The position numbers were made by a program, and so were the translations under genes. Positions 2,053-26,917 of a stretch of DNA of 64,000 bases are shown here, one piece after another. Source of the stretch: Escherichia coli (GTDB lineage Bacteria; Pseudomonadota; Gammaproteobacteria; Enterobacterales; Enterobacteriaceae); NCBI RefSeq assembly GCF_024502345.1, contig NZ_JALDNN010000001.1. One strand, written 5' to 3'. How positions within the stretch are numbered: position 1 is the stretch's first letter; the number at the start of each line of letters is the position of its first letter. The notes under the pieces were generated by a model that was given only the letters and a program-made list of their open reading frames with translations, was not told where the DNA came from and ran no database searches.

Positions 2053-3267
2053 TTATGCCGTCTTCCTAAATGCACCCTCTACCACACCCCCGCCTTTCCC
2101 CAGCTCACCAATGTAATCCGCATACCACTGCATCATTTGCCTACGCCCATCAAGATACTGCGCATGGTTATACGTGCCGCGAATCGCATTCTTATCGACA
2201 TGGGCAAGCTGCGTTTCAATCCACGCTGAGTTAAAGCCCTGCTCGTGCAGAATGGTACTCATCGTGTGGCGGAAACCATGTCCCGTCAGCCTGCCTTTAT
2301 ACCCTAATAACTCAATGACCTGATTGATGCTTTCCTTGCTGATCGGCTTGCGAGGATCATTCCTGCCGATAAAGACCAGCGCGTGATGTTTTGATATCGG
2401 CTCAAGTTGCTTGAACAGCGCAATAACCTGTTCTGAGAGCGGCACAATATGGGGCCGTTTCATCTTCATCACTTCTGCCGGGATCTCCCATAGTTTTGTC
2501 TCAAAATCGATATCCTCCCAGCGTGCGAAACGTAGTTCTTGCGTGCGTACACCGGTTAACATAATGATCTGAGTGGCGGTCTTCGTGATAACACTGCCGG
2601 TATAACCCGCCAGATCATTGAGAAAGTGAGGTAGTTCATTGGCAGTAAGGAAAGGAAAATGTACCTTTTTTGGCGTAGCTAAGGCGCTGGCAAGATCGGG
2701 GGCGGGGTTGTAATTCGCTCTGCCGGTAATAATTGCAAAACGGAATACTTCCCCGCAGCGCTGGCGAACTTTACGCATTTTCTCCAGCGCTCCGCGTTTC
2801 TCCATCTTACGTAGCGCTTCCAGTAGTTCCATTGGCTTAATATCAGCAATAGGGCGCTTACCGATGTAGGGGAAGATGTCCTTCTCAAAGGTGTCGATGA
2901 TTTCATCGCGGTAGCGCAATGACCAGCGATCGGCTTTAGTCTGATGCCACTCGCGAGCCACGGCTTCAAACGTGTTCTCTGCATTCAGTTTCTGCGCAAG
3001 TTTCTCGGATTTTTTAGTTTCTCCGGGGTCGCCACCTGCCGCCAGAATCTTCTTCGCCGCATCACGTTTTTCACGGGCGTCTGCCAGAGAAACATCGGGG
3101 TAGACGCCAAAAGCGAGACGCTTCTCTTTACCTGCAACGCGATATTTCATGCGCCAGTAGCGTGAGCCATTGGTTGCTACTTCAACGTACAACCCTCCTG
3201 CATCACCTAAGCGATACGTCTTTTCTCTGGGTTTTAACGCACGCACTTTTGCATCAGTTAATGGCAT
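2053..3267 (-). CDS. Tyrosine recombinase, P4-type integrase (404 aa), apparently intact
   Basis: N-terminal arm-binding region (MPLTDAKVRALKP...GLYVEV...YWRMKYR) and C-terminal catalytic residues (GHGFRHT ... RGTYNHAQY); lies next to the tRNA-Sec 3' end. Confidence 0.9.
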   Translation of the reverse strand: MPLTDAKVRALKPREKTYRLGDAGGLYVEVATNGSRYWRMKYRVAGKEKRLAFGVYPDVSLADAREKRDAAKKILAAGGDPGETKKSEKLAQKLNAENTFEAVAREWHQTKADRWSLRYRDEIIDTFEKDIFPYIGKRPIADIKPMELLEALRKMEKRGALEKMRKVRQRCGEVFRFAIITGRANYNPAPDLASALATPKKVHFPFLTANELPHFLNDLAGYTGSVITKTATQIIMLTGVRTQELRFARWEDIDFETKLWEIPAEVMKMKRPHIVPLSEQVIALFKQLEPISKHHALVFIGRNDPRKPISKESINQVIELLGYKGRLTGHGFRHTMSTILHEQGFNSAWIETQLAHVDKNAIRGTYNHAQYLDGRRQMMQWYADYIGELGKGGGVVEGAFRKTA

Positions 3268-3706
3268 CGTTGTTTCCTCCTGAAAGCAAGAATGCTTTGA
3301 CAGCCTGGGTTTGTTCGGGTGTCAGGGATAGGGTTTGTTTGGTTGTTTTGATGGTTAAGCCGTAATGCTCTGAGAGGGAAAGTTGAAAGGATTGTTTGGC
3401 CCGTTCCTGGCGACGTTGCTCTCTTTCGTGAGCCTTATCGATTGCAGGATCGTAGCCCTCTTTGATTTTTACTCTGGCTTTATCCCTTAGCACAATGGCT
3501 TCTTTAATCGTGACGTCCGGCCATGCTCCAAATGTGAGGCTTTTCTCCTTCCCCTCTATCCGGTACTTCATCCGCCAGCACTTTGACCCCGTTGGATTCA
3601 CCAACAAAAAGAGCCCTCTGCCGATAGAAAATTTGTAAGGTTTACTACGGGCATCAAGTGACTTTATTATTTGATTATTAATGATTTTTTGTTCTTTTGG
3701 TGGCAT
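3254..3706 (-). pseudogene. Integrase N-terminal fragment (150 codons, arm-binding domain only), stops 14 bp inside the start of the intact integrase
   Basis: Translation MPPKEQKIINNQIIKSLDARSKPYKFSIGRGLFLLVNPTGSKCWRMKYR... resembles P4-type integrase N-termini but lacks the catalytic domain. Confidence 0.6.
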
Positions 3707-3862
3707 GTCATTTTACCTCCAATGGTTGGTATGCCCAATTGTGCCCCCAAAGGCGTATTGATACCAGTAGACTCCGGTTGACCTCAGAATACAAGGAAGG
3801 CTTGATATATAAGGGATGAGAAGAGATTTTGTTGACGTCAGAAGAGTTCAGGAGAGGCTAAT

Positions 3863-19601: not shown

Positions 19602-21989
<2,388 letters not shown>

Positions 21990-22280
21990 GGTTCTCTCCC
22001 TAAAAATCTGTCTGGCAGGGTAGCGATTTGTGCGCATTGTCACGATTGAGATTTTTTAAGGTGAGGGGGAATTGATAACTTGTAGTTATGTGAAATCGCT
22101 ATTTTCTGTAGCGGAGATGCATTCTTCTGACTTCTTGTCTGAGAAAATGCATAAGAAAAAATAGGTTAAAACTGAGGGGTGGAAAAGAAAGGTGCAATGT
22201 TTAGCTATTGTATTCACCGCACCTGGACTTTGGCTTACGCATCGGGTGTCTCAATCAACAAAAAGAGTTTTTAGTTTCTG

Positions 22281-22478
22281 CTATTTTTTCTCTGTAATTT
22301 TTACACTGTTTTCCAACTGCTTAATGCTGACCTGCGGGGTCGGCAACTCCTCAGGCATGGTTCCGCCAAGTTCCTGAATGGTTTGCCTCACCTTGCGACC
22401 TACGTCAAAGTGTGTGGTGTTAGCTTGCTGTTTTGAATTCACGCCATCCCGCTTAAGTTTTTCTTCTGTTTGGGTAGC
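22281..22478 (-). pseudogene. dinD: 3'-terminal remnant (about 65 codons) of DNA-damage-inducible gene dinD; 5' two-thirds absent
   Basis: C-terminal part of ORF 22281..22592 (ATQTEEKLKRDGVNSKQQANTTHFDVGRKVRQTIQELGG...KITEKK) matches the recalled DinD C-terminus and sits at the K-12 dinD position between yicC and yicG; the ORF's first 38 residues look non-coding. Confidence 0.55.
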
Positions 22479-22814
22479 TACTTTGAACCGGATAACCTCG
22501 AATGGGTGACTGGTGAGATTGGTGCGCCGCCGTTCGATGTGTCGGGTGTGGCCTACCTGCTTCATGGCATGGTGTCGTTCGATAAGCGCCACCAGATCGA
22601 ATCAACCCGGCGCACACTGGAAAGCATGGTTGCTGGTGGACTGCTTGAGCGGGTGACAGTGTATGAATCGCGCCAGATACGGCGCGGCGGTGAGACTAAC
22701 GCAACGGTCGTGCGCTACGGTTTACCCGGTCAGTGCGCTGTTATGCGCGATACTGGCGGCGCTGATAGCCTGGCTGATTCCGGTAATACTGCGGAGTTAG
22801 GTCTACCGGCATAG
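22470..22814 (+). CDS. Hypothetical 114-aa ORF inside the dinD islet; possibly a 5'-truncated gene
   Basis: ORF only; protein-like composition; no recognisable family. Confidence 0.25.
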   Translation: MGSYFEPDNLEWVTGEIGAPPFDVSGVAYLLHGMVSFDKRHQIESTRRTLESMVAGGLLERVTVYESRQIRRGGETNATVVRYGLPGQCAVMRDTGGADSLADSGNTAELGLPA

Positions 22815-22858
22815 CTTACCCGTGGAGAAATGAATCATCGAATGAGTTTGGTCGGGAG

Positions 22859-23539
22859 TTATTCCACCAGCAAAAATGGCGTTGCCCGGTCTATGACGTT
22901 GATGCCAATTAACGAGCTAACATTTCGACCATTCACAATGCTATCCCGTTCAAGCAAATGCGCTATTTTTTCTACTTCATACCAGTATTGAGCCATGAGG
23001 GCTTTGGTCTTTTCAACGAGTTTAGAAAGCATTAACTCCCTGTTAATTTGCTTATTTGTAGCGCAGATTAAATCGAGCATGTCATTTACGTTAGCCATGT
23101 CATAGCGATGAGGTAGCGAATACTTTTTGTTGAAAATATCGTTGTTTTCGTAAAGGGCTTCGCTTACTGGTCCGGCGAGGGATACAAAAGCGGCCTTTTT
23201 TGCATCGCGCTTTATACCATCCGCATAGTAACGTATGAAAGGGATAACTTTACCATTCTGCCCAACTACACCAGATTTACTATCCCGCAAACGCCCGAGA
23301 TCGTGGCTGTGAATTATGCTGTGTTTAACAACGCCCAAACACTTGGCCTCATGTACATGTTCGCCAGCAACGTAACCGTATTCATCCATAACGGCGATAA
23401 CAATATTGGTTTCACGCCCACCGATATGACCAGGAATAACCGGGACAATTGTGGCAAATTCATTACCGTTAATTGTGCCCTGATAGGCGTTCAGATGAGG
23501 GGCGGCCTCAGAAATTAATCTGCTTTTTTCGATGTTCAT
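22859..23539 (-). CDS. Hypothetical protein (226 aa), cargo of the integrase islet in dinD; no family recognised
   Basis: Uninterrupted ORF with visibly lower GC than the flanking backbone, directly downstream of an intact integrase gene; contains a His cluster (GHIGG, EHVHE, HSIIHSHD). Confidence 0.6.
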   Translation of the reverse strand: MNIEKSRLISEAAPHLNAYQGTINGNEFATIVPVIPGHIGGRETNIVIAVMDEYGYVAGEHVHEAKCLGVVKHSIIHSHDLGRLRDSKSGVVGQNGKVIPFIRYYADGIKRDAKKAAFVSLAGPVSEALYENNDIFNKKYSLPHRYDMANVNDMLDLICATNKQINRELMLSKLVEKTKALMAQYWYEVEKIAHLLERDSIVNGRNVSSLIGINVIDRATPFLLVE

Positions 23540-23761
23540 TTTCAGTCTCCGTTAGGCGGCGGTGAGATTGTCCGGGTACCACATGGTTGACACTTAGATC
23601 CAACACGTAGTCGTACCTATCCAGTGAAAACCATTCCATCACATCGCCGTATTTAGCCCGTTTCATAACGCCACCTTTTACGCTGCGCCTTATTTTGTGA
23701 TTGAGCCAGGCGGTAAGGCTTCCCGCTTTTCGCCCCGTCGGGCTAGACTCAATCTATTCAG

Positions 23762-25021
23762 TTAGTTCGCCCTTCTGAGAGGCGTCACGTTGTAATCTTC
23801 GCCCTTCTCCAGAGCCACCAGCAAGCCCGCCCACTGTGTTAACGCAGCCCGTCGCTCGTCAAAGTATTGGTGACGGTTATAAATCCCCTCTACGCCCTTA
23901 ATGCGATGATTGAGGCATCGTTCCGCCACTACCGGATCAACGCCCAGCGCTGCTAAATGGGTGCGGGCCGTGCGTCGGAAGTCGTGAATCGTGAAATTAG
24001 GCACATCCGGCATTTCGGCGCGAACCTTAGCCAGTGCTACGGGCAGGGTGCTTTCCTGAATATGGGGGATCATGCGGTTTTGCATCTTTCTGGCTGGCAG
24101 TACCCATGCGCTGTTGCATGAGAACGTTTTAAGCTCTCTCAGCCATTCGACGGCTGGCGGTGCTAATGGGATGTCTATAGCGTCGCCGTTTTTGCTGCGT
24201 TCCTCTGGCAAGCGCCATACGGCTTTATCAAAATCGAACTCCTCCCAGCGGGCGGCGCATAACTCCATTTTGCGGACGCATAACGCTAACAGTAATTTGA
24301 ACGTGATTTCGTTCTGGCGACTGAATCCCTTAGCCGTGCGCATGGCTTTGAATAGCTGGATTAACTCATCGCGGGTTAACCAGCGGTCACGGGCAACTTC
24401 TTTCCCTCCGGCGTCTGCCACCTCAAAGGCTGAACAGGGGTTAATCTCCAGCGCGTGCCGTTTGATTCCGTAGTCGAATATGCGGCGCGTCCATCTCAGC
24501 ACGTCCGTTGCTATGGTCGGCGCTCCACGGTCAACAATACTTTTCAGCATGTCGTCGATATGGCGCGGCTTCACGTCCTCTACCTTCATGCTGCCAATGC
24601 AGGGGTTTATATCTTTGTCGATACGGCGGCGGAGTATATCTGGGTGCTTCCAGCGCGGCAGGATCTGACGCTCAAAGTATTCAGCGGCAAGCTCTGAAAC
24701 GCGCATGGCATTCTTCTCTGCTTCGATCTTCGCCAGTGCTTCGGCTTTCCGTTCCTGCTTCTCTCCTGCAACGTCATAGCCCAACGCAACGCGAGCCGAT
24801 AGCTCTTTGGCTGTCTCTCTGGCCTTTGATAGTGATAGCTCGGCATATGAGCCGATAACCATTGCTCGCTGCTTACCTGCGAATTTATAGCGAAAGCGCC
24901 AGAAAGGGACTGTGTAGTTTTTGGGGTAGCAAATATAAAGGCCGTTGCCATCGGCCCTTCCTTCAAATCTATCTCCGGCCTTTATCCATGCGCGGATCTG
25001 CATGTCTGTAATCTTTGGCAT
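23762..25021 (-). CDS. Tyrosine recombinase, phage-type integrase (about 419 aa), apparently intact
   Basis: N-terminal arm-binding region (GNGLYICY...FWRFRYKF) and catalytic residues (HDFRRT ... GIYNRHQY); start placed at MPKITD because the upstream ATG at 25057 lies inside a direct-repeat motif. Confidence 0.85.
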   Translation of the reverse strand: MPKITDMQIRAWIKAGDRFEGRADGNGLYICYPKNYTVPFWRFRYKFAGKQRAMVIGSYAELSLSKARETAKELSARVALGYDVAGEKQERKAEALAKIEAEKNAMRVSELAAEYFERQILPRWKHPDILRRRIDKDINPCIGSMKVEDVKPRHIDDMLKSIVDRGAPTIATDVLRWTRRIFDYGIKRHALEINPCSAFEVADAGGKEVARDRWLTRDELIQLFKAMRTAKGFSRQNEITFKLLLALCVRKMELCAARWEEFDFDKAVWRLPEERSKNGDAIDIPLAPPAVEWLRELKTFSCNSAWVLPARKMQNRMIPHIQESTLPVALAKVRAEMPDVPNFTIHDFRRTARTHLAALGVDPVVAERCLNHRIKGVEGIYNRHQYFDERRAALTQWAGLLVALEKGEDYNVTPLRRAN

Positions 25022-25144
25022 TGCGAATACCTGAACATTGAATGGGGGTGTGTACATAAACCGATGTACATAAAACCCATTATGTACACCACTATGTACA
25101 CGGCAATCGTGCGCTTTGTTGCTTCCTCATGATAGCCCATGATA

Positions 25145-25171
25145 ACAAAAAAGCCCGACAAAATGCGGGCT
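25145..25171 (-). terminator. Rho-independent terminator of yicC
   Basis: GCCCGCATTTTGTCGGGC hairpin followed by a T-run on the minus strand, about 40 bp after the yicC stop. Confidence 0.6.
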
Positions 25172-25210
25172 TTGCTGGTTTTGTGTATCTTTGTGATAGC
25201 TCTTAAATAT

Positions 25211-26074
25211 TTACTCGATATTCTGAATCTGCTCGCGCATCTGCTCAATCAACACTTTCAGCTCAATCGCGGAGTTTGTCACTTCGGCATTGATAGACTT
25301 CGACGCAAGAGTGTTCGACTCGCGGTTGAACTCCTGCATCATAAAGTCCAGACGACGACCAACGGCTTCTTTTTTCTTCAGAATGTTGTAGGTCTCTTTG
25401 ACATGCGCTTCGAGGCGGTCCAGCTCTTCGGCAACGTCAATTCGTTGTGCCAGCAGAACCAACTCCTGCTCCAGACGGTTGTTTTCCAACTGCACCTGAG
25501 CATCTTCCAGCTTCGCGACCAAGCGTTCACGCTGCCATTGCAGGATTTCCGGCATATGGGAGCGGACTTTGACCACTTCGGCGGTGACGCCTTCCAGACG
25601 CTGCTCGATCAATGCTTTCAGTGCCTGACCTTCGGTTTCGCGCGCGACAATAAAGTCGTCCAGGGTGCCATCCAACGCCGCGAGAATTTCAGCGGCAATG
25701 GCGTCAAGATCCTGCTCCTGGGCTGCCATCACGCCCGGCCAGCGCAGAATATCAACCGGGTTGATTTCCCCTTCGTCACTCTGCATTTTTACCCAGTTCG
25801 CGGCAGTTACCAGCTGTTTAGCCAGTTTTTCGTTGAGGATCAGCTCACCTTGCGCGCTAACATCTGGCTCATAGCGCAGGGTACATTCCACTTTACCGCG
25901 CGTCAGGCGAGAACGAATACGCTCACGAACGACAGGTTCAAGGCTACGGAACTGCTCCGGCAGACGAAAGTAAGTTTCCAGATAACGCTGGTTTACCGAG
26001 CGCATTTCCCAGGTTGCGCTCCCCCATTCACCCTTGATTTCACGCCGGGCGTAGGCGGTCATACTGCGGATCAT
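25211..26074 (-). CDS. yicC: YicC-family stress-induced protein (287 aa)
   Basis: Translation matches YicC. Confidence 0.9.
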   Translation of the reverse strand: MIRSMTAYARREIKGEWGSATWEMRSVNQRYLETYFRLPEQFRSLEPVVRERIRSRLTRGKVECTLRYEPDVSAQGELILNEKLAKQLVTAANWVKMQSDEGEINPVDILRWPGVMAAQEQDLDAIAAEILAALDGTLDDFIVARETEGQALKALIEQRLEGVTAEVVKVRSHMPEILQWQRERLVAKLEDAQVQLENNRLEQELVLLAQRIDVAEELDRLEAHVKETYNILKKKEAVGRRLDFMMQEFNRESNTLASKSINAEVTNSAIELKVLIEQMREQIQNIE

Positions 26075-26200
26075 AGACGTTCCTGTTTATAAAAGGAGAG
26101 GTGGAAGGATTATAGCCATCGATGCCTTGTCAGGATAGGAATAACCGCCGGAAGTCCGTATAATGCGCAGCCACATTTGTTTCAAGCCGGAGATTTCAAT

Positions 26201-26917
26201 ATGCGTCCAGCAGGCCGTAGCAATAATCAGGTGCGTCCCGTTACCCTGACTCGTAACTATACAAAACATGCAGAAGGCTCGGTGCTGGTCGAATTTGGCG
26301 ATACCAAAGTATTGTGTACCGCCTCTATTGAAGAAGGCGTGCCTCGCTTCCTGAAAGGTCAGGGCCAGGGCTGGATCACCGCAGAATACGGCATGCTGCC
26401 ACGTTCTACCCACACCCGTAACGCTCGTGAAGCAGCGAAAGGTAAGCAGGGTGGACGCACAATGGAAATCCAGCGTCTGATCGCCCGTGCTCTTCGTGCG
26501 GCAGTAGATTTGAAAGCGCTGGGTGAGTTCACCATTACGCTGGACTGCGACGTGCTTCAGGCTGATGGTGGCACGCGTACCGCTTCGATTACGGGTGCCT
26601 GTGTGGCGCTGGCAGATGCGCTACAGAAGCTGGTGGAAAACGGCAAGCTGAAAACCAATCCAATGAAAGGGATGGTAGCCGCGGTTTCTGTCGGGATTGT
26701 GAACGGCGAAGCGGTTTGCGATCTGGAATACGTTGAAGACTCAGCCGCAGAGACCGACATGAACGTAGTGATGACCGAAGACGGGCGCATCATTGAAGTG
26801 CAGGGGACGGCAGAAGGCGAGCCGTTCACCCATGAAGAGTTACTCACCTTGTTGGCGCTGGCCCGAGGGGGAATCGAATCCATTGTAGCGACGCAGAAGG
26901 CGGCGCTGGCAAACTGA
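26201..26917 (+). CDS. rph: Ribonuclease PH (238 aa), full length
   Basis: Translation matches RNase PH through the C-terminus; start at [10 protein letters not shown]. Confidence 0.9.

Follow-up and report, generated by a model that had tools for sequence, protein, structure and literature searches.

A 114-codon reading frame beside dinD in Escherichia coli is very probably a pseudogene fragment of the terminal gene of a decayed PICI

Phage-inducible chromosomal islands (PICIs) occupy a dedicated att site and carry no structural or lysis genes (PMC6092414, PMC11773190). Among those of Gram-negative bacteria, the EcCIMP1-type elements encode int, AlpA, an antirepressor, a P4-family primase and PerC. 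The same gene set in the same order is found in an island of about 12 kb that many E. coli strains carry at the 3' end of yicC. Like the described elements, this island has a dedicated att site in the 3' end of a gene and is devoid of structural and lysis genes; it is a PICI. We analyzed its counterpart in a window, by which we mean a whole stretch of 64,000 nucleotides from an E. coli genome (RefSeq assembly GCF_024502345.1, contig NZ_JALDNN010000001.1). In contrast to the EcCIMP1-type elements, the window holds only a ~2.7-kb PICI wreck consisting of int and gene fragments. At its edge lies a 114-codon ORF that the initial annotation had taken for a protein-like frame, perhaps a truncated regulator, an excisionase-like gene or a partner of the neighboring 226-aa gene. 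The ORF is very probably a non-functional remnant (a pseudogene fragment) of the PICI terminal gene, with a stepwise history of deletion. The coordinates of the features are collected in Table 1.

The window covers the gmk-ligB-yicG-dinD-yicC-rph region of the E. coli chromosome. In K-12, dinD and yicC are adjacent, and comparison with this empty site places the island exactly at the yicC 3' end; the att position was set by this comparison, and no exact att direct repeats of at least 10 bp were found. Read from int, the intact island contains int, DUF6387, an AlpA-type HTH gene, a hypothetical gene, AntA/AntB, DUF4222 and an Icd-like gene. These are followed by small ORFs, the P4-family primase, SSB or small ORFs, an M41-family protein and PerC, then by variable cargo (pRiA4b ORF-3, a Panacea-domain gene and others) and lastly by a gene of 119 aa. 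Every gene is on one strand save this last one, which is convergent with the rest. It is the integrase-distal terminal gene, situated about 0.2 kb inside att and reading inward. Elsewhere in the same chromosomal region, ligB (19688-21375, + strand) is split into ORFs of 347 and 215 aa that overlap at 20728-20731, and its alignment with K-12 ligB shows one gap, of 1 nt. Because the gene is called as split in the sister genomes L012, L013, L015 and L016 as well, this is a lineage frameshift.

A similar arrangement is found at related loci. Wherever downstream backbone genes (PerC, SSB, primase, int) could be mapped in the loci examined, they are on the strand opposite the terminal gene, a pattern that is consistent, not exhaustive: at several loci no backbone gene could be mapped, and one extra copy on the same strand occurs in a few of the more complex arrays. 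At three loci (L027, L032, L054), the int of another island lies 384-444 bp upstream of the terminal gene, pointing to tandem arrays in which related islands share one att site; at L027, the gene is preceded by a complete backbone (primase, Icd-like, AntA/B, DUF6387, int). Four TGTACA repeats surround the integrase 5' end in the window (25051, 25065, 25083, 25095), and a GTACAC..GTGTACAC inverted pair is located near the opposite att end of intact islands (8830-8845 in L001, a locus with an intact terminal gene). Both are possible integrase arm-type sites.

The terminal gene belongs to no named family; its cluster is that of WP_032318765 and WP_001243001, and all of its relatives are called "hypothetical protein" in their sources. 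These relatives form 537 clusters at 90% identity, with lengths of 119-124 aa, and are distributed across Enterobacterales, including Escherichia, Klebsiella, Salmonella, Citrobacter, Enterobacter, Yersinia, Pectobacterium and Pantoea among other genera. The median pairwise dN/dS of 13 diverse members is 0.14, and by this measure the family is under purifying selection and is a real protein-coding gene. Conservation of the frame in related elements, which the initial annotation had proposed as a check, is thus borne out. The N-terminus, a helix with the sequence ESTRRTL and the C-terminal tail are nearly invariant.

Searches for described relatives of the family gave little. Neither the 114-aa nor the 119-aa protein matched Pfam, NCBIfam or PHROG families at E <= 1, and scans of the 114-aa, 119-aa and 226-aa proteins against Pfam, PHROGs, NCBIfam and PADLOC yielded no meaningful family. 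A PDB profile search returned just a chance match to RseA (E = 0.8), Foldseek found nothing significant in PDB, and a literature search by family accession produced no matches. When BFVD was searched with Foldseek and 50,697 phage genomes with tblastn, a single homologue was recovered, in the early region of Klebsiella phage ZX1 adjoining an anti-repressor; it is too thin a basis for assigning function. An exhaustive profile search of 1.84 billion representatives retrieved 94 family representatives at 50% identity, many of which are fragments. The family is thus narrow, and in phages it is almost absent.

The predicted fold is a winged helix. In the structure model, the core winged helix-turn-helix comprises residues 16-93 and is accompanied by an additional N-terminal helix, while the conserved C-terminal tail is modeled at low confidence. 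The family is like the MarR and ArsR regulators and the N-terminal domain of BlaI/MecI in this predicted fold only. It differs from them in its extra N-terminal helix and conserved C-terminal tail, it has no evident ligand-binding or dimerization domain, and it lacks profile membership, the Pfam, NCBIfam, PHROG and PDB profile searches all being negative. One distant relative alone (P0194) has sub-threshold matches to PaaX, MarR_2 and TrmB. Another distant member (P0182, 200 aa) combines the winged helix (residues 1-103) with a C-terminal MUG113/T5orf172 (GIY-YIG-like) domain, a fusion that supports a putative DNA-binding role and nothing beyond.

The Rpp (redirecting phage packaging) proteins of E. 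coli PICIs are small, have a DNA-binding domain and are encoded near the integrase-distal end (PMC6739421). They resemble the present family in these respects and differ from it in size, RppA being 144 aa and RppC 153 aa (PMC6739421). Identity with Rpp was considered and rejected, as there was no sequence match to a PDB chain and no Rpp structure among the top fold matches. In CFT073, the PICI end beside phoQ, presumably that of EcCICFT073, encodes a protein of RppA size (144 aa) and has no member of the family. Neither the Rpp paper (PMC6739421) nor the other PICI papers searched for it (PMC6092414, PMC11773190) mention the terminal winged-helix gene.

Directly upstream of intact family genes is a palindrome of ~32 bp, CTTATTGTAKGATAG-N2-CTATCCYACAATAAGGAA, set in otherwise unrelated DNA. 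Its consensus is CTTATTGTA(T/G)GATAG-N2-CTATCC(C/T)ACAATAAGGAA, and it ends 11-13 nt before the ATG. Alignment of distinct upstream regions recovered it in all 30, with no conservation in the remainder of the upstream DNA; examples are located at L001 8924-8955, L003 2586-2617 and L004 5470-5501, with others in the sister genome L011 and at about 27 further loci. Each island has the palindrome once, and a regulon search within islands revealed no convincing extra half-sites. The palindrome overlaps the Shine-Dalgarno sequence and contains a -10-like TATGAT/TAGGAT. The latter assignment is tentative because even the DNA ahead of the intact gene gave no consensus promoter in a simple scan.

Autoregulated repressors and their operators classically show this layout, with a palindrome over the start region of the gene. 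In the most likely mechanism, a winged-helix dimer of the parent protein would bind the palindrome, a candidate operator, and repress its own promoter. We consider it about an even call that the protein is an autoregulated DNA-binding regulator of the island, the proposed binding resting on juxtaposition and dyad symmetry. The near-neutral isoelectric points of the family (mostly 5.3-7) and the predicted RNA structure of the palindrome count against this model. Pairings between operator variants and recognition-helix residue 51 were considered as evidence and set aside; they are suggestive in one subgroup, and neither clean nor independent of phylogeny. A doubtful extension of the same model is that the parent family is a previously unrecognized master regulator of such enterobacterial PICIs, which would control its own expression and bind the terminus palindrome.

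The palindrome may alternatively be the target of some other protein, or it may act as RNA. As RNA, it would form a 5'-UTR hairpin that sequesters the Shine-Dalgarno sequence and controls translation, and would not be a protein operator. The predicted hairpin has an energy of -12.7 kcal/mol (z = -2.5) and pairs the AAGG of the Shine-Dalgarno sequence, and one subgroup shows a symmetric change from ATTGT/ACAAT to AATGT/ACATT. However, the asymmetric arms at five loci (L032, L044, L049, L054, L060) would break the stem, and conservation is at the level of sequence, not of pairing. Furthermore, if the TATGAT of the left arm is the -10 element, the transcript would lack that arm altogether. Overall, we regard control by an RNA hairpin as unlikely.

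Less probable still is that the parent gene encodes a recombination directionality factor, i.e. an excisionase acting at the neighboring att site, as the excisionase-like reading of the initial annotation would imply. The AlpA-Vis-Xis excisionases are likewise small winged-helix proteins encoded near the att site of an integrative element, and the family gene lies within about 0.2 kb of att. The geometry is also compatible: in the excised circle, the gene would be divergent from int across attP. The evidence otherwise runs the other way. The family matches no Xis, AlpA or HTH_17 family and no excisionase model in Pfam, NCBIfam or PHROG, its isoelectric points are not strongly basic, and its gene is at the end opposite int. 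The islands already have a separate AlpA-family gene beside int. The targets of recombination directionality factors normally co-vary with the integrase. In this family, neither the ESTRRTL recognition helix nor the palindrome co-varies with integrase type: both stay invariant among islands that use different att sites and have unrelated integrases of only 25-29% identity.

The islet in the window was delineated by BLAST of positions 22000-25300 against the intact islands of PK6, PT62 and ET979, which resolved four deletion junctions (J1-J4; Table 1). J2 removed about 1.4 kb relative to the PK6 island (pRiA4b ORF-3, a hypothetical gene and PerC), J3 about 5.8 kb including the primase and Icd-like genes, and J4 the AlpA gene. 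On the far side of J4, both int and the yicC 3' end contributed by the island remain intact. This 3' end, TTACTCGATATTCTGAATCTG, is a synonymous substitute for the K-12 yicC 3' end, TTATTCGATGTTCTGAATCTG, and comparison of the two places the crossover core at about CTGAATCTG, within the last yicC codons. The islet is a PICI remnant, not a PICI, because it retains only int and gene fragments, with AlpA, the primase and attL deleted, whereas intact relatives at the same site have the full complement of integrase, AlpA, primase module in order and att site with no structural or lysis genes.

Table 1. Positions in the window of the ORF, the deletion junctions and the other features of the islet.
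Feature	Position	Strand	Description
dinD 3' remnant	22281..22479	-	199 bp, the last 65 codons and stop; corresponds to L004 2923-3121 of dinD 2923-3747
114-codon ORF	22470..22814	+	TTG start; from the open reading frame listing
Junction J1	22475..22479		5-bp direct-repeat microhomology TAGCT; joins dinD 3' remnant to nt 33 of the 119-aa gene
Fragment A, interior of 119-aa family gene	22475..22767	+	99.7% identical to L001 9001-9293
Junction J2	22766..22767		From codon 108/109 of family gene to DNA 93 bp downstream of M41-family gene
226-aa ORF	22859..23539	-	Chimera of AntA/AntB residues 1-47 and M41-family residues ~45-223, fused at J3
Junction J3	23394..23401		8-bp overlap; from M41-family gene to antA/antB 5' end
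Junction J4	23577..23578		From end of 144-aa hypothetical gene to first ~30 codons of DUF6387 gene
Tyrosine integrase of the island, apparently intact	23762..25057	-	Arm-DNA-bind_3, Phage_int_M and Phage_integrase domains
Island-supplied yicC 3' end (TTACTCGATATTCTGAATCTG), integrase-side att junction	25211..25231	-	Putative core about CTGAATCTG

The product of these deletions is not confined to the window. The exact 226-aa chimera is widespread in E. coli, occurring in about 150 collection blocks, and contigs that encode it have the same J2-J4 mini-islet, after which come a 123-aa form of the ORF and a complete dinD of 274 aa. Annotations elsewhere name the 226-aa product "peptidase M41 family protein". 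In a sister metagenome contig (L012, ENA ERZ28571495), the integrase is split into ORFs of 175 and 219 aa at the equivalent of window positions 24446-24573, with about 118 bp missing relative to the window; this is a sign of continuing decay of the mini-islet.

The most informative comparison is with the sister genome L011 (GCA_036619395.1), which differs from window positions 21000-26500 only in a 1,098-bp segment between TAGCT pentamers and is otherwise 100% identical. The segment comprises the 5' 626 bp of dinD (codons 1-209) with the dinD promoter and LexA box, K-12-like intergenic DNA, attL, and the palindrome, Shine-Dalgarno sequence and first 11 codons (MRMTSRKKEIL) of the family gene. 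In L011, the ORF accordingly has 123 aa and begins with this N-terminus, and dinD is intact. The window thus carries the 123-aa ORF after a further, very recent deletion has taken off its 5' end. This deletion, J1, is not an assembly artefact, because the same junction recurs in two independent assemblies (ERZ19692831 and SRR33906014; L018, L019). Neither J1 nor J2 was found in the complete RefSeq E. coli genomes of the collection. The frame of the dinD remnant reads through J1 into the antisense of the winged-helix fragment, creating a spurious 103-aa ORF with a GTG start (22281-22592, - strand).

Several statements of the initial annotation are upheld by these comparisons. The ORF does begin at the dinD breakpoint, 5 bp before J1, and it is convergent with the 226-aa gene; homology shows that it was derived from a real gene. 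The longer version sought in related islets exists as the 123-aa form and as the 119-124 aa proteins of intact islands. Together with the winged-helix model of the family, these longer versions support the suggestion of a truncated regulator.

Homology of the ORF to the family is unambiguous over the core. Fragment A matches, at 99.7% identity, an internal stretch of an annotated 360-bp CDS (WP_032318765.1, "hypothetical protein"), which is the intact 119-aa gene at 8969-9328 of L001, and the matching fragment is present in 397 of 5,426 complete E. coli genomes. Allelic differences aside, ORF codons 3-99 are family residues 12-108, including the invariant ESTRRTL motif of the recognition helix. 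In clustering, the exact 114-aa sequence groups with P0002, which represents the family. The position of the ORF is likewise that of the integrase-distal terminal gene: it is found where the islet meets dinD and is on the + strand, whereas int and the 226-aa ORF are both on the - strand. Only codons 1-2 (TTG GGT) are dinD-antisense sequence. After D108, the family tail is replaced by codons 100-114 (SLADSGNTAELGLPA), which have no homology to the family and are encoded by DNA downstream of the M41-family gene.

What distinguishes intact members from the window copy is found at the two ends. Full-length proteins of 119-124 aa start with MR[ML]TSRKKEILSYF, and the loss of the first 11 codons at J1 deprives the remnant of the nearly invariant R2, T4, R6, K7, K8, I10 and L11. 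They end with a tail of the form …GGADNAIxGExxRV, of which the nearly invariant I111, G113 and R117 are missing from the window copy. The ~32-bp palindrome and AAGGAA that directly precede the start codon of intact genes are also missing; a half-site scan of the window gave just a chance match with 3 mismatches at 23689. No Shine-Dalgarno sequence is present ahead of the TTG, where the sequence is TTTCTTCTGT, and a promoter scan of 22050-22900 detected no sigma-70-like site. As the TTG is a fortuitous start, with neither a Shine-Dalgarno sequence nor a promoter-like site, the remnant is probably silent, i.e. neither transcribed from its own signals nor translated, as judged from these sequence features. 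Read-through transcription may enter it from the + strand.

It is conceivable that expression of the truncated frame persists, starting at the TTG or at a GTG or ATG further in, and that its product acts as a shortened winged-helix regulator. The core winged helix-turn-helix (model residues 16-93) is kept, and the fragment is 100% identical to that of the sister genome, with no decay mutations. We judge such residual function to be very improbable. The deletion took the palindrome, Shine-Dalgarno sequence and start codon and left no promoter-like site or Shine-Dalgarno sequence upstream, and both the nearly invariant N-terminal helix and the C-terminal tail are gone. Zero divergence from the sister genome reflects only how recent the deletion is.

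Another possibility is a functional module made up of the ORF and its 226-aa neighbor, for instance a regulator with its effector or a defense pair. The two are convergent with a gap of only 45 bp, and the same adjacency is found in the widespread mini-islet. This adjacency was created by the 1.4-kb deletion J2, whereas intact islands have 1.4-2.6 kb of variable cargo between the family gene and the M41-family gene. The 226-aa ORF is itself a chimera that lacks the HEAGH (HExxH) motif carried by the intact 223-aa M41-family protein of PK6, and neither protein matches PADLOC. A partnership of the two is hardly credible, and this suggestion of the initial annotation falls away.

Finally, ORF size alone is no proof of a gene, because the same 7.5 kb contains abundant spurious ORFs of 80-130 aa, yet a chance ORF of no genic origin is refuted by 99.7% identity to a gene family under purifying selection.

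The history that best fits these observations, and is very probably correct, begins with a PICI integrated into the 3' end of yicC, beside dinD. Three internal deletions (J2-J4) reduced it to the widespread mini-islet, whose 123-aa version of the gene had already lost the conserved C-terminal tail. Later, a recent 1,098-bp deletion between two TAGCT pentamers produced J1, taking most of dinD, attL, the palindrome, the ribosome-binding site, the start codon and the first 11 codons, which encode the N-terminal helix (helix 0).

As a result, the ORF is to be treated as a pseudogene fragment in a decayed PICI; it should be regarded neither as a candidate regulator nor as partnering the 226-aa protein. 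The J1 deletion also inactivates dinD. Of wider use is the parent family itself, a widespread, unannotated winged-helix gene for which there is no Pfam, PHROG or NCBIfam model. It provides a practical marker for the integrase-distal end and thereby delimits a large class of enterobacterial PICIs. The regulation of such elements is only partly understood, and the family and its palindrome constitute a simple, testable candidate regulator-operator pair. Were the doubtful master-regulator reading true, the protein could be the quiescence or immunity repressor that has yet to be identified in Gram-negative PICIs, or it could sense the helper phage, and the decayed island in the window would represent a natural knock-out of it.
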